The notes under the pieces were generated by a model. That model saw nothing but the letters and a program-made list of their open reading frames with translations. It was not told where the DNA came from and ran no database searches. The position numbers and the translations under genes were made by a program. DNA of 64,000 nucleotides from a virus: the IMG/VR virus record IMGVR_UViG_3300032331_001766, positions 1 through 64,000 of that record. The stretch is one strand, 5' to 3'. Of this stretch, positions 4,565-25,506 are shown piece by piece (the stretch's first letter is position 1; every line of letters begins with the position of its first letter).

Positions 4565-4763
4565 CATGACTGTATTAGAAGAAATCATTAAACAGATTGG
4601 CGAAGAGCTATATCAAAAATGGTACAACGGTTTAGCAGTTGAGGATAGAACAGAAGAATCTTCAAAGGCAATGTCTGTTAATGCTGGAGAAACTGCATTG
4701 TGGGTTATTCAAACATTTATGAATAAGTTTAATGACGCAGCGGAAGAATTAAAAGATAAATGA
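4557..4763 (+). CDS. hypothetical protein
   Basis: Overlapping operon ORF. Confidence 0.7.
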   Translation: MANMTVLEEIIKQIGEELYQKWYNGLAVEDRTEESSKAMSVNAGETALWVIQTFMNKFNDAAEELKDK

Positions 4764-5062
4764 TCATTACTGATAAATCATTTGATAATGAGATTGCATC
4801 ACATGATGTTGTCCTAGTAGATTTTTGGGCAGAATGGTGCGGACCATGTAAAAAAATATCTCCAATTCTAGATGAGATTTCTAATGAGCGTGGGCTTTGG
4901 GTCGGAAAGTTAAATGTTGATGAGAATCCTATAAAAACACAGGAATTCTCTGTCAATTCTATTCCAACTATGGTATTATTCAAGGGTGGGAAACCAGTAA
5001 AGACAATTATTGGAGCCAAGCCAAAGCATGTGTTGCTAGAGGAACTATCTGAATGGATATAG
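4760..5062 (+). CDS. trxA: thioredoxin
   Basis: VDFWAEWCGPCK, SIPT. Confidence 0.96.
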   Translation: MIITDKSFDNEIASHDVVLVDFWAEWCGPCKKISPILDEISNERGLWVGKLNVDENPIKTQEFSVNSIPTMVLFKGGKPVKTIIGAKPKHVLLEELSEWI

Positions 5063-6757: not shown

Positions 6758-6863
6758 TTGTGAAGTAAAAGATTGTCAGCTTGAAGCTAAATATATTACT
6801 TCAACTGAAAGCAAATATTTAAAAGTTTGCGAACAACATTGGCATGAAAAGTATAAAAATTGA
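6744..6863 (+). CDS. 39-aa C-x4-C...CxxH microprotein
   Basis: Hand-translated, GTG start, overlaps both neighbours. Confidence 0.5.
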   Translation: MAQSNCEVKDCQLEAKYITSTESKYLKVCEQHWHEKYKN

Positions 6864-7384
6864 TAAATATTATAGAAGGCTTTGTATCTGATAAAGAATG
6901 CCAAGAATTATTTGAGCATTATAATTTAAAAATATGGGATGCAGAGGATCCCTTTGTTAAAACAGGTTTTGGGGTTGGCAAAGACGAGGCACTTGATCTG
7001 TACAACAAGGATAATCTGTTATCAGATATTGTAAAAAGAATTGGCACCCACCTATCATCACATTATGGTGAAGATATAGAATTAAAATCATTATTCCATA
7101 GCGTAATGACCCCAGGTGCAGTAAACCCCTTACATTGGGACAATTACATTGAAAATGGTCAAGACGACATATCAACATTGTTTTATTTAAATGAAGATTA
7201 TGTTGGTGGAGAACTGCATTTCCCAAATCAAAACAAAATAATTAAACCCAAAGCTGGAACTTTTATATTTTTTAAAGGGGAAGAAAGTCTTATGCACGAG
7301 GTTAAAGAGGTTATTGAGGGTAATAGGAATGCTTTTGTGGGTTTCTTTTGGCCTACAAGGACAAGAATCTCCATAACCAGCTAA
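6860..7384 (+). CDS. 2OG-Fe(II) oxygenase (prolyl-4-hydroxylase-like)
   Basis: HWD, YLNEDYVGGELHF, distal H, R. Confidence 0.9.
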   Translation: MINIIEGFVSDKECQELFEHYNLKIWDAEDPFVKTGFGVGKDEALDLYNKDNLLSDIVKRIGTHLSSHYGEDIELKSLFHSVMTPGAVNPLHWDNYIENGQDDISTLFYLNEDYVGGELHFPNQNKIIKPKAGTFIFFKGEESLMHEVKEVIEGNRNAFVGFFWPTRTRISITS

Positions 7385-9021: not shown

Positions 9022-9302
9022 TGTGGTCATATGTATTAGCAGCAATTGGAGTAACAGGCATATTCTTTGTTGGGCGGAAGACCATATGGGGATGGCTAAT
9101 CCTACTTACCAATGAATGTATCTGGATAGCATATGCTCTGGCTACAAAACAATATGGATTTATTCTAATGGCTACAGCTTATTCAGCAGTTTATATTAAA
9201 TCATTTATTGGATGGCGTAAAGAAGATCAAATACCTATAGTCTCACAATATGAGATGAATACACATGGACAGATAGATCATAGATATATTAGGATTGATT
9301 AA
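9021..9302 (+). CDS. small membrane protein, PnuC-like fragment
   Basis: 3 TM, GRKxxWGW...WIxYA...QYGF pattern; GGAGAGG RBS. Confidence 0.6.
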   Translation: MWSYVLAAIGVTGIFFVGRKTIWGWLILLTNECIWIAYALATKQYGFILMATAYSAVYIKSFIGWRKEDQIPIVSQYEMNTHGQIDHRYIRID

Positions 9303-9811
9303 TGAAAGCAATCAAGATTGATGAGAATGTTTATGAGATTAAAAACTTCTTAAACCATCATGAGATTACAGCAATAAGAGAATATCTGTCTAAGCTAAAA
9401 GAGCATGATTGGCTAGAGTCTAAAGATAACTGGAACAAAAGAATGGCACCATTGTCAGGCTATCCTTTAGATCAGATCAATAACAGATTTAACTCAATAT
9501 TTATAGATGGCAACATTGATGGATTCAGTATGGTGATAAGACACCTAACTGGTGATAGAATGAGTAGTCATAGGGATAATGGAAGCAACCCTACTATTAA
9601 TTGGGGCGCAGTCATATATTTAAATAATGATTACCTTGGCGGTGAGATCTATTATCCTGAATTAGATATAGTACATAAACCAGACCCAGGATCAATGTTA
9701 CTACACGGAGGAAGCGTAGAACACGGAGTCTATAAGGTAGAAGAAGGCATTAAGTATATTATGACTAACTTTATACATAATGGTTATATAGACCCTAATA
9801 TATTAAATTAG
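9302..9811 (+). CDS. 2OG-Fe(II) oxygenase
   Basis: HRD, YLNNDYLGGEIYYP, HGV, K. Confidence 0.9.
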   Translation: MKAIKIDENVYEIKNFLNHHEITAIREYLSKLKEHDWLESKDNWNKRMAPLSGYPLDQINNRFNSIFIDGNIDGFSMVIRHLTGDRMSSHRDNGSNPTINWGAVIYLNNDYLGGEIYYPELDIVHKPDPGSMLLHGGSVEHGVYKVEEGIKYIMTNFIHNGYIDPNILN

Positions 9812-12074: not shown

Positions 12075-12233
12075 TTAAATTGTCTTTGCTAGCTTATCTT
12101 TAATTAGTTTTTGCTTTTCTCGCCATTTCTGCCAATGATTAATCCATTTGATCTCTACATCGACTTCTGGAGGACATTCAACAACTGTCGCTACTCCTCC
12201 AACTAATTCAATTACTACTTTATACTGAGCCAT
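12075..12233 (-). CDS. 52-aa hypothetical
   Basis: Hand-translated MAQYKVVIELVGGVA... Confidence 0.55.
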   Translation of the reverse strand: MAQYKVVIELVGGVATVVECPPEVDVEIKWINHWQKWREKQKLIKDKLAKTI

Positions 12234-12360
12234 GTACATCTATTCTATCTTTAATTAACTTAGAGATAATGTTATGTGCCTCAATGTTTTCTGTTTCGGA
12301 CCCACCCCAAAGGAGCTTTTGTGCTGTATTCAATTGATCATTGATGTACTTGTCACTCAT
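12220..12360 (-). CDS. 46-aa hypothetical
   Basis: Hand-translated MSDKYINDQLNTAQKLLWGG... Confidence 0.55.
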   Translation of the reverse strand: MSDKYINDQLNTAQKLLWGGSETENIEAHNIISKLIKDRIDVHGSV

Positions 12361-12691
12361 CTTCATCTTCGTCCTCATCTTCTTCATCCTCTAGGTCGTC
12401 AATACTTTTGACGTGACCTTTTTCAACCAGGTAATCCATAATTAGTTCATCTAATGTTTCGGGACCAAACTCTATTGTAAATCCTGGGTGGAAGGAATCT
12501 GATAGATAACTCACAAGGATGTCATCTAATGGATTAACTATGATGTACTCACTCAAATCAATCTGTGTGATGTAATCATAAAACCACCAGTCAATTAAAC
12601 TTGGTCGACCAAACTCTTTTGTATATCTAGTTAGTTTGCCATTGATTTCTGCAATCATGGCTCCTGCTTCATATGCCCGTGCTTTATCCAT
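12353..12691 (-). CDS. acidic hypothetical protein
   Basis: GGAG RBS before MDKARAY; poly-D/E tail. Confidence 0.7.
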   Translation of the reverse strand: MDKARAYEAGAMIAEINGKLTRYTKEFGRPSLIDWWFYDYITQIDLSEYIIVNPLDDILVSYLSDSFHPGFTIEFGPETLDELIMDYLVEKGHVKSIDDLEDEEDEDEDEDE

Positions 12692-12962
12692 TGTCCCGTG
12701 CTCCAATCGCAAACGATAGTTGATATGTTAGTTCATACAGCGCTACCAAGGCGTCTAGGTGCCCTTCACATTCTGTGCGGACCATAGAGTCCATTGCCTC
12801 TTCGGTTTCTTCTTCACGTACAATTGCGTCTGCAAGTTCTTGCTCGGCAATTAGCATTAGGTTTTTTAGTTCACCGTGGATAATGTCAAGGCCTGAGACC
12901 CCAGCATTAACCATACGTTGTAAATGGGGCGGGAGCCCAATATCTTCTGCAGTCATATTCAT
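12684..12962 (-). CDS. hypothetical protein
   Basis: CAACGAAAGGG RBS, own TGTCAG promoter. Confidence 0.75.
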   Translation of the reverse strand: MNMTAEDIGLPPHLQRMVNAGVSGLDIIHGELKNLMLIAEQELADAIVREEETEEAMDSMVRTECEGHLDALVALYELTYQLSFAIGARDNG

Positions 12963-13279
12963 TAGTATACCCTTTCGTTGTCATTCATTATATCAGTTGC
13001 CACTGACAATATATGCTCTAGTGCATTTATAGCACCTTCATAATAAGCATCTGACTCATAGTACTCATCTTCTTGAATAGGGATGTCATTGTTAGCATCT
13101 TCCATATCTTGGATTAGAGATAACCTGTGAAGTTTAATATATTCTAGGAACGTAGAAGACTTTGTTTCTATTTTATTATATTCCTCTTGGTCACATTTAT
13201 AGCATGTAACATTTTCATCCTCCGTATAAAGCATTCCTGCCCCACAGGAGGCACACCATGATTGGTCACGCATTCCCAT
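12962..13279 (-). CDS. CxxC...CxxC hypothetical protein
   Basis: TAATG-coupled ORF. Confidence 0.7.
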   Translation of the reverse strand: MGMRDQSWCASCGAGMLYTEDENVTCYKCDQEEYNKIETKSSTFLEYIKLHRLSLIQDMEDANNDIPIQEDEYYESDAYYEGAINALEHILSVATDIMNDNERVY

Positions 13280-13455
13280 TAGTCAAAATACCCTTCTGCC
13301 CATAGTCCTTGAAGAAAGTCATTTGTCTTTAACAAACCTTCAACTAAGGGGTCCTTGTCTATTTGTTCCACATCTGATTTTAAGATATAAAACAATTTAG
13401 CATCGTGCACGGCATTAGACATCTGATCGATGTCATCTTTAGTGTAACCTAACAT
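13279..13455 (-). CDS. 58-aa hypothetical
   Basis: GGAGG RBS; MLGYTKDDIDQM...; TAATG coupling. Confidence 0.6.
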   Translation of the reverse strand: MLGYTKDDIDQMSNAVHDAKLFYILKSDVEQIDKDPLVEGLLKTNDFLQGLWAEGYFD

Positions 13456-13591
13456 TCTATTGCCTCCATGTATTTAATCATAGTGTTGAGTGTTATGTGA
13501 ATATAACAATCACAATCATCTGATGTGTCTCTGTCATCAAAATGTGCCAAGTTGTCATCATACATATAATCAATTAGTTCCTGTGTAGTAA

Positions 13592-13819
13592 TCATTCTTC
13601 CTCACATTCTAAATAGTATTGGTCGCCTGCTTTTAAATCATAGAACTGATTAAATCTACCTTTTAAGTAATTGTTATCTGACATTTCTGCAAATCTAAAA
13701 TCTGCAAATAGTTGGCCTTCATCTAAATTAGAATTAACCCAATCCTCCACTAGCATTTCGCCAATCTCAGAATATGTAGCATCTATTACCATTTGGTTTT
13801 CATTTTCCAAGAAACTCAT
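13592..13819 (-). CDS. acidic hypothetical protein
   Basis: GGAGG RBS. Confidence 0.7.
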   Translation of the reverse strand: MSFLENENQMVIDATYSEIGEMLVEDWVNSNLDEGQLFADFRFAEMSDNNYLKGRFNQFYDLKAGDQYYLECEEE

Positions 13820-14567
13820 TTACCTCCGCCTTTCTATACTCAGGTACTTTGGTTTCCAAGTATACACTGTGGGTCTGACATTTTGCTACCTCTTCAAGGT
13901 CTGCCTCGCCAAGCCAGTTGCAGTTGCCACAGATTTGACCGCAGTCTGCTTCTTCGCAATACTCCATTTGATTAGTTGCATCGCAATCACGGCACATGTT
14001 ATCGTATTCTGATTCTGAGATAACTTCTCCACGGAGCATCTCCAACTCCCCACCCCAGCCTGTTTCTTCCTCATAAGATAAAGTCATAAGTAAACTAGGA
14101 TACTGTGCAGATAGTTTAAGTAAAGCAGACATTGGTCGGGACCAAGCAGTATTAAAGTTATAATGAACTACATGGTTTTCGCCATTAGCAGTTTCCTCGT
14201 AATGAGTATCAGTATAGGCATCATTGTCAGATACAGCCACATCCCATTTGGTGCCCCACTCACGGACATTAAAGTTATACCAGTCATTGGTATCAAACTT
14301 CATGAAATCAGCAAATGTTTGGTCGGCGGAACGGACAGGCTGAGAAAGATACTCTTCCTCAGTAATACCTGCATCTAGATAAGAATAGATATTATGAAAA
14401 GCAAACACAGGATTAGGATAAGTTGTTAATTTCTTTTCCATTTGTCCAGTTTCCATGTTCCATGAATCATGGACCATTTTGAATGGCTTATTCATTTGTT
14501 CCATAAGAGATTTAACTTGCTCAGGATTTCCCTCGATAGTTAAACCGTTGTATACCCAATTTGGCAT
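13800..14567 (-). CDS. DUF1281/YubB ferredoxin-like-fold protein with Cys-rich C-terminus
   Basis: MPNWxxN, WYxxxxxxWGTKWD, FxTAWSxP motifs; CAACGAAAGG RBS. Confidence 0.75.
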   Translation of the reverse strand: MPNWVYNGLTIEGNPEQVKSLMEQMNKPFKMVHDSWNMETGQMEKKLTTYPNPVFAFHNIYSYLDAGITEEEYLSQPVRSADQTFADFMKFDTNDWYNFNVREWGTKWDVAVSDNDAYTDTHYEETANGENHVVHYNFNTAWSRPMSALLKLSAQYPSLLMTLSYEEETGWGGELEMLRGEVISESEYDNMCRDCDATNQMEYCEEADCGQICGNCNWLGEADLEEVAKCQTHSVYLETKVPEYRKAEVNEFLGK

Positions 14568-14747
14568 TTTATATCCTTTCGTTGATATGTTCCAATTATA
14601 CAATGGACCACTGACATTTGGGAAGAGTATATTGGTGTGTTCCACACCACATTTCCCAGCTTTGTGGTCAAGATCACAGAAATTCAGGGCATTTTATATT
14701 GATCTCGTAAACAACATATGCTACCCTCATCCCTTGCGGGCAATAGT

Positions 14748-14865
14748 AATCCCCCCAGGCACCGCTCCTAGGGGGATTTATATAAAGGCTGCTAGGGTAA
14801 CCAACGAAAGTAAATACCCTGCGTTATTTAACGACTGGCTGAACAGCTAAGTAGCCGCACCTTTA
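14748..14865 (-). ncRNA. candidate structured RNA plus terminator hairpin
   Basis: Stems GCGGCT/AGTCGT and AGGGTA/TACCCT, loop-tail pairing GCTGTT/AGCAGC, hairpin AATCCCCCTAGG/CCTGGGGGGATT. Confidence 0.45.
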
Positions 14866-14874
14866 ATTGTTTAG

Positions 14875-15243
14875 TTATACTTTTTCCAGGGCCCTGACAT
14901 ACTTATGACAGAATTCAGAGATACCCATAGTAAACACTTCTGTAGTAAGGTCCTCTTCCATCAAGGTCATTGTCTTGGCCTCCCAGTTGATTACAGGAAT
15001 CTTGTGCTCGTTATCATCAATTCGATTAATGCTTAAGCCCCAGCCTGTTATTTGTTTCCACTCATCTCCAATTAGATTAGAGATAGCAATACGTGTTGCA
15101 TATGATGGGTCCGACCATCTAGACTCTGCTGCTAGCACGGCATGCGCTAAGTTGTTTAGCATGTCATAGCCAGCCCAATGTCCATACAGGTACAACGTGT
15201 CCCCGTTGTTTTGCTTGAATCCGAAGTTTGCTCTATCTCCCAT
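14875..15243 (-). CDS. conserved-type phage hypothetical (YLYGHWAG)
   Basis: TAATG-coupled ORF. Confidence 0.75.
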   Translation of the reverse strand: MGDRANFGFKQNNGDTLYLYGHWAGYDMLNNLAHAVLAAESRWSDPSYATRIAISNLIGDEWKQITGWGLSINRIDDNEHKIPVINWEAKTMTLMEEDLTTEVFTMGISEFCHKYVRALEKV

Positions 15244-15479
15244 TACATTTCCGCCGTTTCTAGTTGAGGTACGTCTTCTTCTATTTTGTTTAATTCTATC
15301 ACTTCATAAGAAACCTTGTCAAGGCCTGTCTTGCTTGCGTTGTAGTGGTGCCCGCAAAAGAATAGTTCTCCTTCTACAAGCTTAACTAAATACATAGCTT
15401 GAGCTGTACCGCATTGATCACAGCCAATCCATCTTGTTAGATCTTCGCTAGTCATTTGATTTAAATCCTCCGCCTTCAA
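15243..15479 (-). CDS. CxxC...CGHH zinc-binding protein
   Basis: CDQC, FCGHH; start may be internal MTSEDL. Confidence 0.7.
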   Translation of the reverse strand: MKAEDLNQMTSEDLTRWIGCDQCGTAQAMYLVKLVEGELFFCGHHYNASKTGLDKVSYEVIELNKIEEDVPQLETAEM

Positions 15480-15614
15480 TCATGTCTGCAAGTCTATCTA
15501 ATAACCAGGTATCTATGTCTGCAATATCGATTTCTCTTAATTGTTCTATTAGTTCCTCACGAGCAAACTTATAGCCATCATCAAAACCATCTTTATAATC
15601 TGACATATTCTCTC

Positions 15615-15818
15615 CTAGTAACCTGTTGCTTCTTTATCTGACCAGTATGACTCCGTTAAGTTATACTTATCACGAATGCGTGACACTTTCTCAATACTAC
15701 CAGTTCCAATATTGAAAGTCAACGCTGACATTGCTTCAGGGTCCAGCCCTGTAATTTCTGCATCCCAATATGCTCTCTGCATCGAGAGCACATCGGGAGC
15801 GGTAAGTTCAAAATACAT
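15615..15818 (-). CDS. hypothetical protein
   Basis: GGAG RBS, TAATG coupling. Confidence 0.7.
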   Translation of the reverse strand: MYFELTAPDVLSMQRAYWDAEITGLDPEAMSALTFNIGTGSIEKVSRIRDKYNLTESYWSDKEATGY

Positions 15819-16486
15819 TAGTTCTCCCTAACGTTAGTAACTTCAGTATCAGAAACTTCAATGTTACCGTGTTGTGATTCAACATATAAGTTGTCGTAGA
15901 TTTCTGATTCTACATCTACATCGCCTTCAAGCAAATCAACTGTAATAGTTCCGCTAACTTCAATTGTTGCAGACCATTCAATCTCTTTAACTAGAGGAAT
16001 GTCTAGCGCTTCAGCAATTGCACGTAGTGTATCTTGGTCATCTGAATCAGCGTAAGCCTCAGAAATAATATCTTTAACTGTGCCAATCTTATTGTTTAAG
16101 ACGCCGTTTGTTTTTTGTGCTTGACGTGCATTGTGCAAATCCCATTCGAGGGATGCAACCTTGGCAGTTGCATATTCAGGGTCAGAGTATCCGTGGATAA
16201 TCTTATATGTAACTAATTGATTAGGATTGTACTCCACTGCAGGTGAGTGTGTGGCATCTGAGCCAATTGTTGATTCTTCCATTTTTTCCTCTTTCGTTTG
16301 GTTTGAAGGTGCAATTGTAGCATGCTCCACTGACAACAAGGTGGTCTTGCGTCCACATGGACATGTGAGTTCTGTCACACCTGATGGGAATCCAAACCCG
16401 TCAGATGATGTTAGTTCTATTAGGCAATCACATTCATCTGGGTCGCAAACAAATGTATATTTACTTGATATGAGTTCGTTGGTCAT
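15818..16486 (-). CDS. hypothetical protein with Cys-rich N-domain; probable second in-frame start MEESTIG
   Basis: Leaderless ATG after TACAAT; internal promoter and GAGGA RBS. Confidence 0.7.
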   Translation of the reverse strand: MTNELISSKYTFVCDPDECDCLIELTSSDGFGFPSGVTELTCPCGRKTTLLSVEHATIAPSNQTKEEKMEESTIGSDATHSPAVEYNPNQLVTYKIIHGYSDPEYATAKVASLEWDLHNARQAQKTNGVLNNKIGTVKDIISEAYADSDDQDTLRAIAEALDIPLVKEIEWSATIEVSGTITVDLLEGDVDVESEIYDNLYVESQHGNIEVSDTEVTNVREN

Positions 16487-16592
16487 AGAGAGAATTGTAC
16501 CAGGGCCCACTGACAAATGTCTATAGTTTCCAGGGCTTTTTTTATATTAGCCGTAACGCAGTTTTGCTGCCTTCACCTTTGGGGGCGCTTTG

Positions 16593-16666
16593 CGATCCAT
16601 AACAGACTTGAACTGTCGACCTCTACCGTGACAGGGTAGCGCTCTAACCAACTGAGCTAATGGACC
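16593..16666 (-). tRNA. tRNA-Asp(GTC)
   Basis: GGTCCAT/ATGGATC acceptor, CTACC-CTGTCAC-GGTAG anticodon arm, TTCAAGT T-loop. Confidence 0.93.
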
Positions 16667-16713
16667 AAGAAAAAATGTGAGCAGTTTTAAATCATGCTCA
16701 GGATTTTTTTTAT

Positions 16714-17721
16714 TTAGAAAGCAGAAACCAATTTCTTGATTTTGTTTTTCTCAGCGGTAAGAATTGGGTCAAAGCCCGATGCACCAGCCATAAGCGATTC
16801 AGCATTACCACGTGATGAGCGATAATAATCTAGGCGTTCAGTAAGCGCATTAAATGCACCCCACTTTGTGCCCTTGATTGTAGCATTGGTTGGTGAGTTA
16901 TGATAAAGGTCATCAAGTAGAACAACCTTATTCTCCCACTTAGTTAGCGCAACCTTTGAAGCATCATCGGCAGGCTTTGGATAGATTGTTTTAATCAACT
17001 TAGAGAATTCGGCATCAGTAATTGACTGAGCGAACAAAGCCTTAGCCTCAGTTTCGAATTCGTCAAAGTATCCAAGAGCAAGACCAAGAGTCTCACGTGC
17101 AACTTGGATGCGACCTTCAACAGATTGCGTGTGACGAATTTTGAAAGATTGCTTTGCATTACGCATTGCAAGATTCAAAGTGTTTTGGCATACAACACGA
17201 ACAGGAGTAACCGCTGCCTGAACAGCAACAGAACCATCGTGTGATGTCCATACGATTAGATAAAGTTTAGTTTCATCATTGGCGCCTTGTGGGTCAAGAA
17301 CCATTGTGCGAGGGATGTCTACTGTACCGAATACCACTTTGCCCTTTTTTAATGAGCCAGCAGATTCCCAGCGACAGTTAGCATCTGCATCGTGAATAGC
17401 ATCCGCAAAAGCGAATAACTCTTCATTCTGCACAGGCTTGTAACGCTTGCCAACAGTGGCAAGAACATCGGTGCCTTTGTTAAATGGGTTGTCACGAATG
17501 ACAAGAGATGCGGTAGATACATCATTCCATGATTCTGGAATGTGCTCGGTGATTGGAGACAAGCGAACATTCCAATTAGATAACTTTGCTTCATCAAGCA
17601 TTGTTTGTGTTGTAACTTCTTCATCTGCTGAGAAGATACGATTGGCAAGATTATGCCATGCAGGTGCACCACGAAGAGCAAAAGCAACTTCGCCGTTTTC
17701 CATTTCTAGATTATGAGCCAT
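16714..17721 (-). CDS. DUF932 (phage/plasmid TIGR03299-like) protein
   Basis: MAHNLE..AWHxL, YKPVQNxE, SHDGS, PVRVVCQNTL, IRHT. Confidence 0.88.
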   Translation of the reverse strand: MAHNLEMENGEVAFALRGAPAWHNLANRIFSADEEVTTQTMLDEAKLSNWNVRLSPITEHIPESWNDVSTASLVIRDNPFNKGTDVLATVGKRYKPVQNEELFAFADAIHDADANCRWESAGSLKKGKVVFGTVDIPRTMVLDPQGANDETKLYLIVWTSHDGSVAVQAAVTPVRVVCQNTLNLAMRNAKQSFKIRHTQSVEGRIQVARETLGLALGYFDEFETEAKALFAQSITDAEFSKLIKTIYPKPADDASKVALTKWENKVVLLDDLYHNSPTNATIKGTKWGAFNALTERLDYYRSSRGNAESLMAGASGFDPILTAEKNKIKKLVSAF

Positions 17722-17840
17722 TTTTATTTCCTTTCGATTGGTTGATGTTGCAAGTATAACAGGAGGGACTGACATTATCAAGAGTTAAAGATAAGATGTC
17801 CGAATTATGCCATGTGATCAATCTCACAATTTTTCGGGCG

Positions 17841-17872
17841 TTTTCCACAGGCAGCCGTAAGGCTGTGGATAA
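17841..17872. promoter_or_regulatory. inverted DnaA-box pair
   Basis: TTTTCCACA-N14-TGTGGATAA. Confidence 0.7.
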
Positions 17873-17922
17873 CCCCTCACATTTGGGGGCTGCTCCCTGG
17901 ATCTACCAGGGAGCGGCACCTC

Positions 17923-18177
17923 TTAAACGAAGAGCTTCGAAGGATAACTCATTTTGGATTTAATCGATTGAACTGTTTCCATTGGTAGAAACATCGCTGC
18001 AGTCTTCTTCTTTTTTAAAGTATCAAACACGTATGCATGTACTGTTGTATTAAAGTTGCGGATGTTACCAAACACATACTCGGAAAGTAATTCTCTATCA
18101 ACATTGTTATCAGCAAAAATAGTTAAATCATTTGCTTTGATGTCATCATAGATTTCTATTCTGAATCTGTTTTTCAT
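17923..18177 (-). CDS. hypothetical protein
   Basis: AAAGG RBS. Confidence 0.7.
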   Translation of the reverse strand: MKNRFRIEIYDDIKANDLTIFADNNVDRELLSEYVFGNIRNFNTTVHAYVFDTLKKKKTAAMFLPMETVQSIKSKMSYPSKLFV

Positions 18178-18248
18178 TTGTTGCCTTTGTTAGAAGGGAC
18201 ACCCGAAGGTGTGAGCAGTTTGGCGACATACTCAGGTCGTTGGATTAC

Positions 18249-18665
18249 TTAGAGGTACTTAGCAATCTGCTTCATTGTAGAAGCATTTACTGTTTCCTCA
18301 TCTGTCATCTTGAGAATTGTGAGAGCATTTGTGATGTCCTCTTTCATCTCACGATAAGTGTGCTGATGAATAACCTCAAAATCCTTTTCAGGTTCTTTTG
18401 GAAGGTCTGACTCATTAACTGTTAAGTCATAGTCAATGTTAAGTGTTTTGTTCCAAGAGCGGTAGTTGGTACGGAAGTTTTCTGCCTTCTTGATGTTAGC
18501 AACTGCAAAATCGCTAACTTCTTTTTGCCAAGCCTTGCGAGCCTTCTCGTACTTTGCTTCGTTTGCTTCTTGTGAGGTATAGTCTTTTTCTAGTTGTGCT
18601 AGACGAGTTTCTAGTGCCTTGATAACCTTTGGTGTTGCCACCTTTACTGTAATTGCTCTGCTCAT
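18249..18665 (-). CDS. coiled-coil hypothetical protein
   Basis: AACCAACGAAAGG leader, TGTCAG promoter; start MSRAIT. Confidence 0.8.
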   Translation of the reverse strand: MSRAITVKVATPKVIKALETRLAQLEKDYTSQEANEAKYEKARKAWQKEVSDFAVANIKKAENFRTNYRSWNKTLNIDYDLTVNESDLPKEPEKDFEVIHQHTYREMKEDITNALTILKMTDEETVNASTMKQIAKYL

Positions 18666-18799
18666 TTGTTGCCTTTCGTTGGTTGGTTGTTTGAGTAGTA
18701 TAACATAGGGGTCTGACAAGTCCCCGTAGGGAGAGAGTTCTTACTTACGACATTGGACGAGAACACTCTCTAAAACTGTCCCTGTTTCGTTCTAGTTAA

Positions 18800-18976
18800 T
18801 TAAACTAGGGCTTCGTTGCTAACTGTTGTCCAACGAGTTTCCTTTGTTGGCATTTCTAGCAACACACGCACCGAGCCAGATGCGTTAGGAATAATCTCCT
18901 TGATTACTCCTGTCTTTTTTGACTTTAGGGTGGTGAATAAATCGCCGACCTTGTAAGTGTATCCATTTACTGTCAT
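18800..18976 (-). CDS. 58-aa SH3-like microprotein
   Basis: YKVGDLF...GVIKEI; GAAAGGA RBS and own promoter. Confidence 0.65.
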   Translation of the reverse strand: MTVNGYTYKVGDLFTTLKSKKTGVIKEIIPNASGSVRVLLEMPTKETRWTTVSNEALV

Positions 18977-19092
18977 TTTGCTTCCTTTCTTGTTAGGGTC
19001 TTATTATAGCAAAGGGGTCTGACATTTTCTACCCCAATCTCATTATGCGAGATACCAAGCGTGTGAGTTATCTCACACGCCTAGTTTTGATC

Positions 19093-19362
19093 TCAGTATT
19101 CGCTCTCAGGTAGCCAAGCGTCTAGGTGGTGTTGTTCAATAATAGCGGAGGCGGGTGCAAACTTTTCTCCACGATACGATACGCCTTCAGGCATTTCGAT
19201 TAGTTTATTATAGTCCTCCTCATAGTATGCGTCAATAGCATCTATGCAAGGTTGCACCATAGAAAGTGGAACGGGTGGATAGTGATTACCCTGTAAGTGA
19301 TAACCTAGTGCAACCTCTAAGTCTAATTCATTAGCAAGGTCAAGCGCAGTGTTGTATCCCAT
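19093..19362 (-). CDS. hypothetical protein (HLQGNHYPPVP)
   Basis: GGAG RBS, coupled. Confidence 0.75.
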   Translation of the reverse strand: MGYNTALDLANELDLEVALGYHLQGNHYPPVPLSMVQPCIDAIDAYYEEDYNKLIEMPEGVSYRGEKFAPASAIIEQHHLDAWLPESEY

Positions 19363-19577
19363 TAGTTATTATCTCCAAACTTTACAATAGCCCAAGTGTT
19401 ATTTTCATTTACTTTATCAAGCGCACCAATTTGTGACATAGTACCAATAAAGCAATCACGAAGTAATGCTTCCATTTGTGCCTCATCAAGATTTACAAGA
19501 CGAGCCAATAATGAAGGTGGCATAAGGTGTTCGTTAATCTCTGTAACAAGATTAATTGTGTGGTTAAGTGTTATCAT
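19362..19577 (-). CDS. hypothetical protein
   Basis: CAACGAAAGG RBS, own promoter. Confidence 0.75.
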   Translation of the reverse strand: MITLNHTINLVTEINEHLMPPSLLARLVNLDEAQMEALLRDCFIGTMSQIGALDKVNENNTWAIVKFGDNN

Positions 19578-19689
19578 TTATTACCTTTCGTTGTTGGAAT
19601 AAGAGTATTTTACCATTAGCCACTGACATTACCTAATCCATCCTCGGCGTGTCGCAGCTTTTGTGAGAATGATCACAATTTTCTAGGGG

Positions 19690-19721
19690 TTTTCCACAAG
19701 TACCCGTAAGCCTGTGGATAA
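19690..19721. promoter_or_regulatory. inverted DnaA-box pair
   Basis: TTTTCCACA-N14-TGTGGATAA. Confidence 0.7.
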
Positions 19722-19958
19722 CCCCCCATATATGCGGGCTGTCAGCTACTTTGTCAAATCATTTTGATTTTACATAAAGATAAATAGCAAATACAAATGG
19801 AGACACAAGGCCACCAATTAATAAAATAGATATAACCGCTGCAACAAAATCAACCATGATCAAAATCTTTTTTATGTTTTGTTTTACGTGAATATTTTTT
19901 CTTATTGCGAACAGGAGTTGCGGCGTTAGATCTCCGCAATTCCTGAATGCGTTTAACT

Positions 19959-20150
19959 TTATTTAGTAGAGAGTTTTGGAACATGGTAACCACACGCCTC
20001 ATGAAACTTATTTACATCAAAGCGCTCATTTTCTTTTGCAAACATCATCGCAAAATCATTTACCATTTTAGAAAATAAAGCAGGGTGCGTTTTATCGCTG
20101 GCAAACTTTAAGATTTCTGCAGTTGCTTCGAAATGTTTTCTTGTCATCAT
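19959..20150 (-). CDS. hypothetical protein (MTRKHF...NxRFD..KF..AC type)
   Basis: GAAAGG RBS; recurrent phage early-protein pattern. Confidence 0.75.
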   Translation of the reverse strand: MMTRKHFEATAEILKFASDKTHPALFSKMVNDFAMMFAKENERFDVNKFHEACGYHVPKLSTK

Positions 20151-20368
20151 TTAGTTATTACCTTTCGTCCTTCACGATAAAAAATGCGTGTATAGCATTT
20201 GCCTGTTGGCGTGTAGAGATTAACAGTTGAATACTCATCTGCAAAGCCCCAGTCAATAAACTTAGAAAACTCGGTGTGCGCTTCTAACTCATCTGCGTAT
20301 TCTTTTGACCAATGCGGAGCATTTTCATCATACGCCAAAGTTACTTTATGCATTATTATCTTCCTCAT
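20147..20368 (-). CDS. hypothetical protein
   Basis: ORF; start uncertain (MHKVTL likely). Confidence 0.65.
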   Translation of the reverse strand: MRKIIMHKVTLAYDENAPHWSKEYADELEAHTEFSKFIDWGFADEYSTVNLYTPTGKCYTRIFYREGRKVITK

Positions 20369-20497
20369 CTGTTACACAATCGCAAGGCTCTACATCATAA
20401 TTATTTTCGTCTCCGAAAAAAACAAATCCTGCGCCACCGCATTCATCGCAATCTATTGCGAGAATGTTAGTTAATTCATCTAGAATGTTTCCCATTA

Positions 20498-20704
20498 TTA
20501 TTCACCAACCTTTACTGCGATTGTTGCGAATTTATTTCGCAAGCCACCTGTACGAATTTCGATTGTGTAGGCTTCAGTTTTGTCGCCATACCAAATTGCT
20601 GGACGAGGTTCAGCAGAAACAATTTCGCCTGAAAAGTGGCGAGAGTTTGAGCGGTAAGTCTTGCCGATTAGCAAGTTTTCGATTGTGTATAGTTTAGTTG
20701 CCAT
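20498..20704 (-). CDS. hypothetical protein
   Basis: Start MATKLYT after CAACGAAAGAGGG, own promoter. Confidence 0.7.
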   Translation of the reverse strand: MATKLYTIENLLIGKTYRSNSRHFSGEIVSAEPRPAIWYGDKTEAYTIEIRTGGLRNKFATIAVKVGE

Positions 20705-21034
20705 TAGTGGCACCCTCTTTCGTTGTTGTTGAAGTTGTAATTGTAGCAGAGAGGACTGACAAAGCCTCGGATTTGGATTGCTGGCGTGTTGCAAGTACAT
20801 GAGCCTTGAATTCGTCTAGATTCATTTGACTTCCTTTCGTTTGGTTATACCCGCAATTATAGCCGAAACCACTGACATAAACTAATTACTAGCCAGTAAT
20901 TCCAAATATTGAGACGCTCAAGCCGTGTGATAAATCTCACAAAATTCCAGGGGTTTTTATAACAAACACGTAACGACACGCCCGACCCCGCACATGTGCG
21001 GGGGTGTCGCCCTGTATGTCAAGGCGACACGCCG

Positions 21035-21229
21035 TTATTCTTCTTCTATCTCCGCTAAATAATCTTCATGCTCTACTAGACCTATAGCAAACGCTACGGG
21101 ATCACAGCATTCTAGTATCTCGGCGGGGGTAAATGTAGAGTAGCCTATCTTTACAGTAGGATAAACATCATTTAGTAAGTCTATAAAGCTTTCTTTTATT
21201 TCTATGTCTCGCTCTAGTTGTGATTTCAT
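21035..21229 (-). CDS. hypothetical protein
   Basis: Start MKSQLERD. Confidence 0.65.
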   Translation of the reverse strand: MKSQLERDIEIKESFIDLLNDVYPTVKIGYSTFTPAEILECCDPVAFAIGLVEHEDYLAEIEEE

Positions 21230-21479
21230 TTCGTTAGTTCTTTCCAATCTTCTTTCATCATGTGCCACATCATGCGCCCCATGTATAGGGCGGGTACTAG
21301 TAGGGCTAGTTGTACTAGTGTAGTTAGTAAGCGGTTCATTACTTATTCTTCTTTCTCTTGATTACTTTATAGAGTGTAACACCTAGCACCGACAAGATAA
21401 TAAACGCCCATGATAGGGATAGGTAGATAAAGTTTCCCATGTCGAACATGAAGCCGTATTCATTTAGTTCGATAGTCAT

Positions 21480-21686
21480 TTACTTATCTCCAAACATAGA
21501 GAATACCTCATCTAGTTGCTCATCTGTTAGGTGGTCTAGTTCGATAGCCTTAGAGAAGCCGAATACATCTCCCTCATCTTCTGCCTCTACCTCTACCTCA
21601 TCTAGGTATGTGTATTGGTCTTTTACATCTTCTTGAATAGTGTCCCACTTAGACACGCTATTAGTCTCGTATGAGTATGCGTACAT
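21480..21686 (-). CDS. acidic hypothetical protein
   Basis: GAAAGG RBS, coupled. Confidence 0.7.
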   Translation of the reverse strand: MYAYSYETNSVSKWDTIQEDVKDQYTYLDEVEVEAEDEGDVFGFSKAIELDHLTDEQLDEVFSMFGDK

Positions 21687-21838
21687 TAGTTCTGTTCTAC
21701 CTTTCTCATGTGTGCAACAACATTCTTAGAAACCTTTTGTAGGTCTGCTACTACCTTATTCATCTCGTCTGCGCTATTAGCGGTGAAGCCTGCGCCTAGT
21801 AGTTGTGCGCCGTCCCATAGTGAGTATGTTATAGTCAT
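21686..21838 (-). CDS. small hypothetical protein
   Basis: Start MTITYSLW downstream of promoter. Confidence 0.65.
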   Translation of the reverse strand: MTITYSLWDGAQLLGAGFTANSADEMNKVVADLQKVSKNVVAHMRKVEQN

Positions 21839-21937
21839 TTCGTTATCTCTTTCGTTAGTTGGTATAGTTGGAATTGTAGCGGATAGGCAAGACATTAGCA
21901 AGGCGACACGCCGTAGGCTAGTGTGAGGTGTATCACA

Positions 21938-22096
21938 CTAGGGCTTAGTGTAGTACTTACCTTGCGGACAATGTGTGTCGAATTGACCTCCACACATTAC
22001 ACATCGTGTCCATGCGGTAAGCCCTCCGCATGTATCGCAAGCGGTTAGCGGGAAGGCAGAGCCTAGGCTATTTCTATTTTCATACAATGAGTTCAT
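21938..22096 (-). CDS. 52-aa CxxC...CxxC microprotein; first gene of leftward block
   Basis: AAGGAG RBS; CDTC/CVMC. Confidence 0.6.
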   Translation of the reverse strand: MNSLYENRNSLGSAFPLTACDTCGGLTAWTRCVMCGGQFDTHCPQGKYYTKP

Positions 22097-22341
22097 CTTG
22101 AACTCCTTTCTTTATCTTATGTCTTAAGACTACATGAGGGGTCTGACAAAAAGCAACTCAAGAAACGGACATTAGAGACATTTCAAAATAAATCTTTGTG
22201 ATACTAGTCACACACACGCTCATTATGGGCGGACTATCCAAAAACTAAGACCCCTATAAATGTATGTATCATACAAAAGAAAAATATATTAACATTTTAT
22301 AAAATCTTGAAAAGCAGTTGACTATAATGTACAATGATCAA

Positions 22342-22722: not shown

Positions 22723-22749
22723 CTAATCAAAATATTGTATAATAAACAT

Positions 22750-23292
22750 ATGGAACAATTAATTCAAGAATTTAAGGCTGCTATGGCAGATCCTACAGTC
22801 AATCATAAAATTTTTAAGAAAGCTTTGGTTCAAACACCTAGCTGGCAGAATATGATGGATTATATTGAATTTTCAAAAACGGCGGGAAACTATAGATCTG
22901 ATTATGAAGGATTTTATATCTTGCACTGTGGAGAAGATCACGATATATCTCATTTTAATGGTGCAGCAGAATTTCTTAAAGTTATGGGTGCTGTATATGG
23001 AGAAGAAAATCCATCACAGGGATGCTTTACTTTTGTAATCTCTGAAAATTACAGAGCTATGACAGATAAAAGTGGAATTATGAGACATACTGACACTACT
23101 GATACAATTCACTGGACAACAGTAGGAGCTACTATTTGGACGTTATATCAGGATGGTCAAGCTCATGAATATTTGGTGGAACCTGGGGATATTGTCTATA
23201 TTCAATATGGAACAGAGCATGGAGTAGAATCTTTAACACCTAGAGCAGGAATTGTTTATTCAGGTGGAGAATATCATCCTAATAAGGATTGA
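22750..23292 (+). CDS. JmjC/cupin-like oxygenase
   Basis: HTD, GxTxW, VEPGDIVYI..G..HGV; leaderless after TATAAT. Confidence 0.8.
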   Translation: MEQLIQEFKAAMADPTVNHKIFKKALVQTPSWQNMMDYIEFSKTAGNYRSDYEGFYILHCGEDHDISHFNGAAEFLKVMGAVYGEENPSQGCFTFVISENYRAMTDKSGIMRHTDTTDTIHWTTVGATIWTLYQDGQAHEYLVEPGDIVYIQYGTEHGVESLTPRAGIVYSGGEYHPNKD

Positions 23293-23448
23293 TATAATTG
23301 TAGTCGACTAGGATATATATGAAGAATATAAAAATAATAGGAGTATTGCTGGCAACAGCAATCGCAACTGGATATTTATTAAATGAAATTTTAAAAAAGG
23401 CGGGACTAGAAGACTCTTTCGATTTTGATCTATTTGGAGAAGATATAG

Positions 23449-24057
23449 ATGTCGATCAAGAGTAAAGCCATATACCTAGAACCAGGTATATTCTATGTAG
23501 AAGACTTCCTTGATCCAGAAGAATTAAAGGCATTGCAGGAATTTTGTACTAAATCGGACAAATGGGATTCTGTTCTTGGATGGGGATCTGAATCTCTATG
23601 GCAAGACAATACTAGACATACAGCAGGAGATCAAAAAGCTACAAATGCTGTATATAAGATTAACCTAGCTATGGCTGAATTGGTAAACTCTGATAAAGCA
23701 GAACTTAGACCTAACTATACTGTAAATCGCTTTAGGCCTATTTCGAACCCGCCCATCGAAGGTTCTACATTCTGGGATGACGATGAATGGTCAATGGGGC
23801 CACACTGGGATTCAGATTATGGTCCATTAGATGCTCTATCTACAATTGAGCATGGCGTCCTATTTTATATAAATGACAATTATGAGGGTGGAGAAGTCGT
23901 ATATACCAAAAAGGGTATTACATTTAAGCCAAAGGCTAATACGATTCTAGTTCATGGTGGATCCGAAGAATACACCCATGGTGTTCGTAAGGTTACATCT
24001 GGAGAAAGATATACTCTCTCTACTTTCGCATTCACTCCAGGAAGTATTTATCTGTGA
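23449..24057 (+). CDS. 2OG-Fe(II) oxygenase
   Basis: HWD, YINDNYEGGE, HGV..V.SGERY. Confidence 0.9.
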   Translation: MSIKSKAIYLEPGIFYVEDFLDPEELKALQEFCTKSDKWDSVLGWGSESLWQDNTRHTAGDQKATNAVYKINLAMAELVNSDKAELRPNYTVNRFRPISNPPIEGSTFWDDDEWSMGPHWDSDYGPLDALSTIEHGVLFYINDNYEGGEVVYTKKGITFKPKANTILVHGGSEEYTHGVRKVTSGERYTLSTFAFTPGSIYL

Positions 24058-24385: not shown

Positions 24386-24937
24386 TTATGGTAATGCCCA
24401 TTCAGAATGATGATATAGCCAATCAATGAATGAGTATTTTATCCCAGCAGTTACTGGTTCTGAAATGTATCTTTCATAATCTTTTATAGGCAAAAGATAT
24501 AATGTATTTTTTTCTATATTAAGAGTATTATATTTTTCAGCTTCATTTACTTTATAGCATCTAATATTTCCGCCTTCATAATCTCCAAAATAATAAATAA
24601 CAAGATAATCTGCAACATTCCAATCACTCCAGCCAAACTCATTCCCAGGATGTTCAACTTTCATTCTGTTTATTGTTTTATGTTCATTTGGCCAATATGT
24701 TGGTATTACGTAGTCTATTAATTTTTGAGAAATTGATAGTGTAGTTGTTATATTTGTACTTATCCTTCCAGACTCGTAGTCTTCAGTTGGGTGCGTGTCC
24801 CATTCTTTTTCTGGAAGATTTTCAACATCATGCAAAAGCTGAGTATATTCAAAATCAGTTAAAAAATTTTTTTTAATATAAATTGCATTTTCAATTTTTA
24901 AAAAATTTTCATTATTTTCTAATAAACGTTTTTCCAT
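24386..24937 (-). CDS. degenerate 2OG-Fe(II) oxygenase-like protein
   Basis: YFGDYEGG and PVTAGIKYS retained; HxD and distal His not evident. Confidence 0.7.
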   Translation of the reverse strand: MEKRLLENNENFLKIENAIYIKKNFLTDFEYTQLLHDVENLPEKEWDTHPTEDYESGRISTNITTTLSISQKLIDYVIPTYWPNEHKTINRMKVEHPGNEFGWSDWNVADYLVIYYFGDYEGGNIRCYKVNEAEKYNTLNIEKNTLYLLPIKDYERYISEPVTAGIKYSFIDWLYHHSEWALP

Positions 24938-25506
24938 TAAATGATTATACTATCTTTTAAAGCATTTTTAACTAAAAATGTAGTATAAGTATATCTTACA
25001 CCTTCTATTATTTTTTTCACTCCATGATCAATCATTGCATGATGAATTACTAGATCTCCAGCAACTGGCTTATATTCTAAATTTAGATCTGGATAATATA
25101 TTTCTCCACCATTAAAACAATCGTTTAAATAAAGCACTACTCCATACTCTGTAATAGCACAGGTTCCAAAATCATCATTTGCTGTTACTTCATCATCTCC
25201 ACAGCTGTCTGTGTGGACATGCATTTCATCACCTGGGAACATCCTTGTAAAGGATAGGCTAGGAGTAGGAGTATGTGTATCTTTAACTAGCTCATTAACT
25301 TTTTCTAGGATAGGCTTTGCTTCGTCTACAAATATTGTAGTTTTGCCGTTATACCACTCAATAGGGTTAACAGTTGTTGTCCAAACTTCATGGGGGTAAT
25401 TCATACATTTTTCATGTAGGCCTTTGGCTTCTTCTTTAGAGATAAAATTTTTATACAAAAAGATATCTTCTGCAAGCTTTATAACTCCTGAATACTCTTT
25501 AAACAT
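24937..25506 (-). CDS. 2OG-Fe(II) oxygenase
   Basis: HTD, YLNDCFNGGE, HGV..EGVRY. Confidence 0.9.
   Translation of the reverse strand: MFKEYSGVIKLAEDIFLYKNFISKEEAKGLHEKCMNYPHEVWTTTVNPIEWYNGKTTIFVDEAKPILEKVNELVKDTHTPTPSLSFTRMFPGDEMHVHTDSCGDDEVTANDDFGTCAITEYGVVLYLNDCFNGGEIYYPDLNLEYKPVAGDLVIHHAMIDHGVKKIIEGVRYTYTTFLVKNALKDSIII

Follow-up and report, generated by a model that had tools for sequence, protein, structure and literature searches.

The window analysed here, a stretch of 64,000 nucleotides, comes from an uncultured lake actinophage with a genome of 113,080 bp. Some 35 small genes form a block that is transcribed leftward, and most of the open reading frames in it encode 37-138 amino acids and have no known function. 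Fourteen putative promoters, each with a TGTC-type box 10 nt upstream of a -10 hexamer, are distributed through the block, together with a set of palindromes.

12220-22148, minus strand: leftward block of about 35 small genes (gene map, Pfam, tRNA search)
13800-14567, minus strand: gene for an Api92-like protein (Pfam)
15243-15455, minus strand: DUF7455 gene (Pfam)
16592-16666, minus strand: tRNA-Asp (tRNA search)
16714-17721, minus strand: DUF932 gene (Pfam)
22127-22148, minus strand: promoter 1, TGTCAG-N10-TAGTCT, heading the block; 52-aa zinc-ribbon ORF (21938-22096) downstream
21873-21894, minus strand: promoter 2, degenerate box, TGTCTT-N10-TACAAT; five small genes downstream (21035-21838)
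21373-21394, minus strand: promoter 3, TGTCGG-N10-TACACT, within ORF 21339-21479
20856-20877, minus strand: promoter 4, TGTCAGTGG...TATAAT; 43-aa ORF downstream
20740-20761, minus strand: promoter 5, within the 43-aa ORF; serves genes from 20704 to about 19760
19607-19628, minus strand: promoter 6; serves 19362-19577 and 19093-19362
19003-19024, minus strand: promoter 7; serves 18800-18976
18697-18718, minus strand: promoter 8; serves 18249-18665 and 17923-18177
17753-17774, minus strand: promoter 9; serves the DUF932 gene and tRNA-Asp
16494-16515, minus strand: promoter 10, leaderless, TACAAT; ATG 16486 opens a 222-aa ORF
16314-16335, minus strand: promoter 11, within the 222-aa ORF of promoter 10
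14595-14616, minus strand: promoter 12; serves the Api92-like gene
13859-13880, minus strand: promoter 13, within the 3' end of the Api92-like gene; serves four small genes
12987-13008, minus strand: promoter 14, the last of the block; serves 12684-12962 and later genes
14663-22212, no strand assigned: eight CRP/GlxR-type palindromes, TGTGA-N6-TCACA (genome pattern scan)

An earlier note on this DNA had described 12 copies of TGTCAG-N10-TAnnnT, all on the minus strand, and a rescan of the window agrees. The 12 exact sites lie between 12987 and 22148; dinucleotide-shuffled sequences (n = 100) averaged 0.95 matches, and the highest count among them was 5, short of the observed 12. No copy was found on either strand of the remaining 100 kb of the genome; the note had noticed none elsewhere in the window. 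The note's total of 13 sites was one short, because the TGTCGG copy at 21373-21394 had been missed; with it the block has 14 promoters. The TGTCTT variant at 21873-21894 is a genuine member of the set, since 27 of 33 relatives have TGTCAG or TGTCGG at the orthologous place.

The sites were also said to precede a ribosome-binding site and ATG or else a leaderless ATG, and some to fall inside genes, and both statements hold. All 12 exact sites but one have an ATG 24-39 nt past the -10 box, and ten of these 11 share a CAACGAAAGG-type leader that contains the ribosome-binding site. At the other exact site (16494-16515) the ATG is only 7 nt past TACAAT, arguing that the transcript is leaderless. 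Five sites fall within coding sequence; from one of these, promoter 11, an in-frame 154-aa isoform would be made, starting at ATG 16282. Most sites bear an extended -10 (TGn), a feature absent from the earlier note, and several promoters have longer upstream modules in common, consisting of a hairpin and a palindrome. The rightward genes of the phage have extended -10 promoters without the box.

Related lake phages reveal how tightly the element is constrained. The 80 related loci analysed (1.32 Mb in total) contain 1167 copies of the motif on the coding strand versus 4 on the other, and spacers of 8, 9, 11 or 12 nt yield at most 61 sites where N10 yields 1167. This 1-bp-rigid spacing fits a factor that is docked on RNA polymerase. 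When promoters of the relatives were selected blind to the box, by TGnTAnnnT, a ribosome-binding site and an ATG only (752 cases), the hexamer 10 nt upstream was TGTCAG in 532, TGTCGG in 28, TGTCAT in 7 and TGTCAC in 2; none of the single-mismatch variants alters TGTC, A or G occupies position 5, and changes at position 6 are rare. Among 792 unique sites, the columns from -36 to -31 contain no more than 0.24 bit of information, and thus no conserved -35, with weak -35-like hexamers at a few single sites. The box itself was considered as a -35 (TTGTCA) and rejected, as the spacer would then be 11 nt. A footprint of the promoter 9 region, likewise chosen blind to the box, has conserved box, extended -10 and CRP half-sites and variable spacers. 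Conservation of the box and -10 amid variable spacers and flanks extends even to lineages with portals only 58% identical. In distant relatives the element reads TGTC[AG]GTGG(T), compatible with TGTCRgtg, the original RecA-NDp consensus in the form quoted in the earlier note, and one relative has TGTCGGTGG at about half its sites.

The motif was also sought in unrelated phages by scanning IMG/VR with TGTCAGTGG-N7-TATAAT and TGTCGGTGG-N7-TATAAT. Among the matches listed, every locus with more than one site was a low-GC lake-phage contig, those checked further belonged to the same broad family, and motif clusters were found in one family of lake phages of about 100 kb only. The related Streptomyces phages BillNye and Yaboi have no motif cluster; one of the two has no site and the other a single chance site.

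The palindromes form a second ordered array. They start at 22197, 21922, 20926, 19662, 19062, 17813, 16364 and 14663 (the last with one mismatch), and their centres lie 36.5-56.5 nt upstream of a box, at eight boxes. The 7 exact copies in 113 kb are all within the block, and shuffled sequences gave 0. In the relatives, palindrome-box distances peak at 26.5, 36.5, 46.5, 56.5 and 67.5 nt, a phasing of about 10 bp; another strong peak, at 41.5 nt, is out of phase. Both the consensus upstream of a core promoter and the distance steps of about 10 bp resemble class I CRP/GlxR promoters. The phage arrangement differs in that its palindromes are paired with a -26 box and in that the centres deduced for them (about -54.5, -64.5, -74.5 and -84.5) are about 3 bp off the E. 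coli class I CRP positions. The phased CRP/GlxR-type sites probably add a second input to the box promoters.

The phage is an actinophage, as judged from its WhiB and portal proteins. The WhiB gene (1106-1417) has homologues in phage records that are almost all in actinophages, including ones 54-56% identical in other, similarly sized Streptomyces phages, and the portal protein is 57% identical to portals of Streptomyces phages. Megablast of the block against cultured phages gave no match. Pfam searches of the phage detected neither a WYL domain nor sigma region 2 nor a T7-type RNA polymerase, and five distant relatives likewise had no WYL domain. The ORFs of the block have no Pfam DNA-binding domain, and the other scanned ORFs of the phage have none besides WhiB and one weak helix-turn-helix (HTH; 48 aa, 93977-94066). 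An integrase or repressor gene was not found in the phage.

The layout of the box promoters is that of a known class of host promoter. The PafBC consensus, tGTCgg(N10)tA(N3)T, consists of a -26 element and a -10 box without a -35 (PMC8635444), and PafBC is activated by ssDNA (PMC11804915). Promoters of this RecA-NDp type have been reported across actinobacteria, Streptomyces included. The phage element is a 22-nt TGTC(A/G)G-N10-TAnnnT, with the box at -28 to -23, an invariant GTC, exactly 10 nt between box and TAnnnT, no conserved -35 hexamer and a -10 of housekeeping sigma type; the window has it as 12 TGTCAG copies and 1 TGTCGG copy, in a phage whose WhiB and portal place it in an actinobacterial setting. 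The phage sites therefore agree with the PafBC consensus in sequence, spacing and pattern of variation, and the likeness to damage promoters pointed out in the earlier note is borne out by the published consensus (PMC8635444). Such promoters, in Mycobacterium and other actinobacteria, are read by 'sigma adaptation' (PMC8635444; PMC11804915). The phage sites also differ from PafBC promoters in several ways: the 14 copies are crowded within 10 kb and lead into small genes of no known function, not into repair genes; eight are preceded by a phased CRP-type site; most include an extended -10 that lies outside the published consensus; and in a third of them the box is followed by ACC or TCC instead of TGG. 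The last two differences count against reading by host PafBC. PafBC has been reported to affect mycobacteriophage resistance (Rafique 2025, as cited in PMC12848934), and a literature search found no paper linking PafBC to actinophage promoters.

Based on the PafBC-like sequence and spacing of the 14 promoters, the phage probably borrows the PafBC switch. In the model we favor, with a probability of roughly 0.55, a host PafBC-type HTH-WYL activator and the sigma A polymerase read these hybrid promoters by sigma adaptation. Bound through a PafB-like HTH to the TGTC(A/G)G box (about -28 to -23), the activator would be interposed between the DNA and sigma region 4, replacing the -35 contact, and TGnTAnnnT would serve as the extended -10. 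PafBC is constantly present in the cell and is switched on by ssDNA, which could come from entry of the phage genome, from resection or from the start of replication. With an activator that is always present and awaits only ssDNA, all 14 promoters would fire together, and the approximately 35 small genes, probably with roles in host takeover or anti-defence, would be expressed without any phage-made factor. The box is already found at the first promoter of the block, and so its reader would have to be present beforehand. Because other phage promoters use an extended -10 alone, the box may serve to strengthen transcription or set its timing and may not be strictly needed. What we infer is which protein reads the box, that ssDNA is the trigger and that the block is expressed early. 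The earlier note had proposed that the phage is wired to the ssDNA response of its host or to a phage-encoded mimic of it. The first alternative gains from the consensus match, the actinophage assignment and the activation of PafBC by ssDNA. The mimic finds no support, given the absence of WYL from the phage and five distant relatives (the Pfam check for WYL genes that the note had called for) and of Pfam DNA-binding domains from the ORFs of the block.

The main rival, less probable but to be taken seriously, is that a phage-encoded or virion-delivered factor of unrecognized fold reads TGTCAG at -26 and bridges to host sigma A in the manner of MotA/AsiA; in that case the box would resemble that of PafBC by convergence, or the factor would be a competitor of PafBC. 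The restriction of motif clusters, among the matches listed, to one lake-phage family of about 100 kb fits such a lineage-specific factor as well as it fits host PafBC, and the lack of a cluster in BillNye and Yaboi speaks in the same direction, given that Streptomyces uses RecA-NDp promoters. Most ORFs of the block and left arm have no known fold, and an earlier gene class could supply the factor, since the other phage promoters need no box. However, searches for HTH, WYL and sigma domains yielded nothing besides WhiB and the weak 48-aa HTH. The phage WhiB has homologues in other Streptomyces phages, and the related BillNye and Yaboi are without the box. It would also have to be a coincidence that an actinophage matches the PafBC consensus in spacing, in the invariant GTC and in the R of position 5. 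Reading by a different host factor, either another HTH-WYL activator or a lineage-specific sigma-binding regulator, seems unlikely. Actinobacteria have many WYL regulators, and SiwR, a second damage-responsive WYL activator in mycobacteria, provides a precedent (PMC10693628), but the PafBC consensus fits without adjustment. No other factor is known that has a TGTC(A/G)G box at this spacing.

Two further explanations would give the box no activating role. It is quite improbable that a phage or host repressor uses the box as an operator to silence the block, a reading for which the asymmetric 'stoperator' sites of cluster A mycobacteriophages are the nearest parallel. The site does fall between the -35 and -10 positions, a frequent repressor location, and a good extended -10 could work alone. 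However, occlusion by a repressor needs neither the 1-bp-rigid spacing nor the single orientation seen at every promoter, stoperators are not tied to -10 boxes, and neither an integrase nor a repressor gene was found. Least probable of all is that a mobile or duplicated intergenic cassette gave rise to the repeats and that the box has no function in itself. The hairpin and palindrome modules common to several promoters would be explained in this way, but the box and -10 are kept while spacers and flanks vary across portals only 58% identical, and five sites lie in coding sequence, apart from the common modules. A prophage-induction switch was rejected because an integrase was not found.

Several searches were directed at the host. 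A genome-contig search with the phage WhiB returned only a phage-like contig in a 'Bacteroidia' MAG and a 'Saccharibacteria' MAG contig. The MAG relatives, with genomes of 0.7-1.1 Mb, were ruled out as actinobacterial hosts because WYL is absent and Pup ligase almost absent; the single contig with a Pup ligase (L232) does not carry a pafA-pafBC locus. The phage RecA is divergent (35% identity) and offered no route to the host recA. Low-GC lake actinobacteria have streamlined genomes. A metagenome scan for the box followed after 70-130 nt by the RecA 'GKGxxM' motif in AT-rich codons gave 4 matches, of which the only actinobacterial one, L098 (66% GC), has TGTCAG-N10-TAGCGT before recA and RecA homologues in named genomes including Jatrophihabitans. 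This match is not an independent test, because the scan pattern already contained the box. The other 3 look like chance matches in low-GC non-actinobacteria, and the scan yielded no low-GC actinobacterial recA.

The phage promoters invite comparison with other regulatory systems. As in T4 middle promoters, a box upstream of an extended -10 replaces the -35 and the host RNA polymerase is used, and the parallel between PafBC promoters and T4 middle promoters has been drawn before (PMC8635444). In T4 the MotA box (TGCTT core) is at -30 and is read with AsiA by 'sigma appropriation', in which AsiA remodels sigma region 4; PafBC does not. The phage box is TGTC(A/G)G rather than TGCTT, and T4 makes its own factors, whereas none is recognizable here, the scanned ORFs having no DNA-binding domain besides WhiB and the weak HTH in domain scans that were general rather than directed at MotA and AsiA by name. 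The model also shares with LexA/RecA-dependent SOS induction of prophages the tying of phage expression to a host damage signal that starts from ssDNA. SOS induction releases a repressor in a temperate phage, whereas here activation would be direct, in a phage with no detected integrase. A third relative is found in plasmid leading regions, in which DUF932 is typical and genes are expressed early in an ssDNA-dependent manner from Frpo-type promoters. In both cases incoming DNA would use an ssDNA cue to express small anti-defence genes first; the Frpo promoter is itself folded ssDNA, whereas here an ssDNA-sensing protein would act on a double-stranded promoter.

A more elaborate version of the host-PafBC model, put forward tentatively, places the immediate-early programme of the lake-phage family under two host sensors acting on the same helix face, with PafBC (ssDNA) as the on-switch by way of sigma adaptation and a CRP/GlxR-type protein (cAMP) as gain control. 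PafBC and other WYL regulators are seen as the ssDNA alarm of the cell for repair and anti-phage defence, and a copied PafBC promoter would turn an unavoidable signal of infection into the start of the phage programme. No virus is so far known to exploit a WYL-domain alarm activator, and if the model is correct this one would be the first; sigma adaptation would also gain a natural example beyond the host chromosome. Phages of this group abound in lakes and are widely distributed there, and the clade offers hundreds of natural promoter variants for dissection of the -26 element. A repair and defence signal of the host would then have become the trigger of phage takeover or anti-defence genes.

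The box, a TGTC(A/G)G hexamer 10 nt upstream of a TAnnnT -10 element, recurs through a block of small leftward genes (12220-22148, minus strand). The 12 exact copies of TGTCAG-N10-TAnnnT that the earlier note had counted are confirmed, all within 12987-22148 on the minus strand, against a mean of 0.95 and a maximum of 5 in shuffled sequence. The motif had been described as absent elsewhere in the window, and this holds more widely, as the rest of the 113,080-bp genome contains no further TGTCAG copy on either strand. Two additional sites have an altered box:

21873-21894, minus strand: TGTCTT, in the earlier list
21373-21394, minus strand: TGTCGG, absent from the earlier list

All 13 sites of the earlier total are thus real, and the TGTCGG copy had been missed; the 14 promoters together span about 35 small genes and about 10 kb. 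The TGTCTT copy is a decayed member of the box family, because TGTCAG or TGTCGG occupies the orthologous place in 27 of 33 relatives.

Most sites have an extended -10, with TG one base 5' of the -10, and the letters after the box are TGG at six sites, ACC at four and TCC at two. As had been claimed, the sites precede either a ribosome-binding site or a leaderless ATG: the ATG lies 24-39 nt 3' of the -10, and the ribosome-binding site sits within a CAACGAAAGG-type leader common to most sites. The exception is the promoter at 16494-16515, where the ATG is only 7 nt 3' of TACAAT, so that the transcript would lack a leader; leaderless transcripts are common in actinobacteria. The observation that some sites fall within coding sequence was also correct, the number being five. 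One of these, at 16314-16335, would give the 222-aa leaderless ORF a shorter in-frame product of 154 aa. Positions 15818-16515 of the window have nested promoters on a single ORF, the outer one leaderless and the internal box with its own ribosome-binding site; the predicted 222-aa form carries a Cys-rich N-terminal segment that the predicted 154-aa form lacks.

Conservation was analyzed with the block's DUF932 protein as query, which retrieved 283 related IMG/VR stretches. In the best 80 of these 283 loci (protein identity 91-95%, 1.32 Mb in total), TGTC[AG]G-N10-TAnnnT has 1167 copies on the coding strand against 4 on the opposite strand, and the spacer is rigid, with at most 61 sites for any of N8, N9, N11 and N12. 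As a guard against circularity, promoters were also chosen blind to the box, using only TGnTAnnnT, a ribosome-binding site and an ATG. The hexamer 10 nt upstream of these 752 promoters was TGTCAG in 532, TGTCGG in 28, TGTCAT in 7 and TGTCAC in 2; single-mismatch variants inside TGTC were not found among the 752, nor were any of the four hexamers found on the opposite strand of this set. An alignment of the 110 nt before DUF932 orthologues, picked by protein start alone (40 unique sequences), shows conservation of the box, the extended -10, the ribosome-binding site and both half-sites of an upstream palindrome, with variable spacers. Distant relatives, whose portals are about 58% identical to that of this phage and hence as far from it as the portals of Streptomyces phages, have 8-25 sites apiece, nearly all TGTC[AG]GTGG(T); in one such contig, TGTCGGTGG occurs at about half the sites. 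Of two Streptomyces phage relatives checked, one has no motif and the other a single chance site. The box promoters are real and conserved, and they form one class.

Upstream of the rightward genes (structural, replication and others) lie promoters of the TGnTATAAT type without a box. Examples with an extended -10 (TGnTATAAT or TATACT) are:

genome 7389, 55695, 59725 and 78821, plus strand
genome 84502, 89523, 109450 and 111635, plus strand

A -26 box and a clear -35 are both missing from these, which form a second promoter class of the same phage. The box therefore marks one regulatory class and, since the rightward promoters have none, its role may be to strengthen transcription or set its timing, without being strictly needed.

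The IMG/VR virus record is rated complete by CheckV, and the window is its first 64 kb. With a GC content of about 37%, it encodes a tailed phage with portal, capsid protein and large tail proteins as well as its own DnaB, primase, Pol III alpha and RecA. In a tblastn search of 50,697 phage records, the matches of its WhiB (gene at 1106-1417) were nearly all to actinophages, with Streptomyces 129, Mycobacterium 58, Rhodococcus 9, Gordonia 7 and a small number of others. The portal shares 57-58% identity with those of Stanwilliamsviridae Streptomyces phages of about 125-135 kb, and the phage is therefore an actinophage. Kavagutti et al. (PMC6802176) described lake actinophages that carry whiB, and the low GC and the many metagenomic relatives in IMG/VR fit that group. 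The genome also has several glycosyltransferases, a thioredoxin gene and numerous 2OG-Fe(II) oxygenase, JmjC or cupin-like genes spread across it:

window 4760-5062: thioredoxin
window 6860-7384, 9302-9811, 22735-24057 and 24937-25506: 2OG-Fe(II) oxygenase, JmjC or cupin-like
genome 91027-91911 and 110833-111423: 2OG-Fe(II) oxygenase, JmjC or cupin-like

The phage WhiB, used to scan genome contigs, retrieved nothing but one phage-like contig from a 'Bacteroidia' MAG and one contig from a 'Saccharibacteria' MAG; the relatives of these are not actinobacteria. The 'Bacteroidia'-binned contigs L096 (JBBALJ010000051.1) and G001:C49 encode a WhiB that shares 68% identity with that of the phage, and they probably belong to a related phage and were binned wrongly. 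Among 13 genomes of 0.7-1.1 Mb related to the 'Saccharibacteria'-labelled MAG, 9 have WhiB-family matches above the Pfam cut-off; none has a WYL domain, and the Pup ligase is missing from almost all. WhiB is usually regarded as confined to actinobacteria and their phages, and these matches could stem from transfer out of actinobacterial hosts, from phage contigs or from errors in binning. When metagenomes were scanned for a RecA motif preceded by the box, four matches emerged. One is an actinobacterial recA of 66% GC with TGTCAG-N10-TAGCGT, which proves little, as the pattern required the box; its RecA matched proteins in named actinobacterial genomes.

The comparison with PafBC promoters made in the earlier note is borne out in both sequence and spacing, the in-vivo motif of Müller et al. 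being tGTCgg(N10)tA(N3)T (PMC8635444). In that system the '-26 element' (-23 to -28) is contacted by the HTH of PafB, which reads the two guanines, near-invariant across actinobacteria, of the GTC triplet; there is no -35, and PafBC lies sandwiched between DNA and region 4 of sigma A ('sigma adaptation') (PMC8635444). The motif, originally called RecA-NDp, ranges more widely than mycobacteria (PMC8223512) and is functional and UV-inducible in Streptomyces (PMC5087735). If the -10 is set at -12 to -7, the box of the phage occupies -28 to -23, and the phage sites likewise have an invariant GTC, A or G at position 5 and often TG directly after the box; the -35 columns of the phage-family sites hold almost no information. 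The box promoters have the architecture of PafBC-dependent promoters, and their phage belongs with the phylum that possesses PafBC. The phage sites differ from the host class, however, in that most have an extended -10, the letters after the box are TGG at only some, and eight have CRP/GlxR-type palindromes upstream.

These palindromes match the CRP/GlxR consensus TGTGA-N6-TCACA. Seven exact copies, the only ones in 113 kb (shuffles, 0), and an eighth that has one mismatch are located in 14663-22212 of the window, 36.5-56.5 nt upstream of eight boxes. Among the relatives, the spacing between palindrome centre and box has maxima at 26.5, 36.5, 46.5, 56.5 and 67.5 nt, steps of one helical turn, with an additional strong off-phase peak at 41.5 nt. 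The helical phasing suggests a protein in contact with the promoter complex. Adjoining the palindrome-promoter units on their upstream side are conserved GC-rich hairpin modules (GGGG..TTATCCACAG..TTACGG..CTGTGGAAAAC..; 17840-17905 and 19690-19760, minus strand), which could be U-tail-less terminators or RNA processing sites between cassettes.

As for what reads the box, the phage-encoded mimic of PafBC offered earlier as an option loses ground, since a WYL domain was found neither in this phage nor in five distant relatives. A phage factor of the MotA type, of unrecognised kind, is a less probable reader than host PafBC but a serious one. In IMG/VR scans with two exact motif forms, box clusters occurred only in this broad family of ~100-kb low-GC phages among the matches listed, with no unrelated phage among them; an unrelated phage sharing the box would have indicated a host factor. 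Most of the 20 block ORFs and 20 surrounding ORFs have no Pfam match, which leaves room for such a factor, but none of these 40 has a Pfam DNA-binding domain, and no sigma region 2 was found in the phage. The search for a T7-type RNA polymerase in the phage was also negative, weakly so because the control matched nothing anywhere. Besides WhiB, the only HTH-like match in the phage is the following:

genome 93956-94102, plus strand: 48-aa ORF with a weak sigma-70 region-4-like HTH (E 1.6e-4) at 93977-94066

A host factor other than PafBC is improbable, and the small remainder goes to a repressor operator or to no function. Prophage induction is unlikely, as no integrase was found in the phage.

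The searchable literature yielded nothing that ties PafBC to actinophage promoters; PafBC is reported to influence mycobacteriophage resistance, in work cited in PMC12848934. The favored reading, with a probability of roughly 0.55, is that host PafBC reads the phage box promoters. PafBC is activated when ssDNA binds its WYL domain (PMC11804915), and ssDNA may likewise be the trigger of the box promoters, with the block presumably transcribed early.
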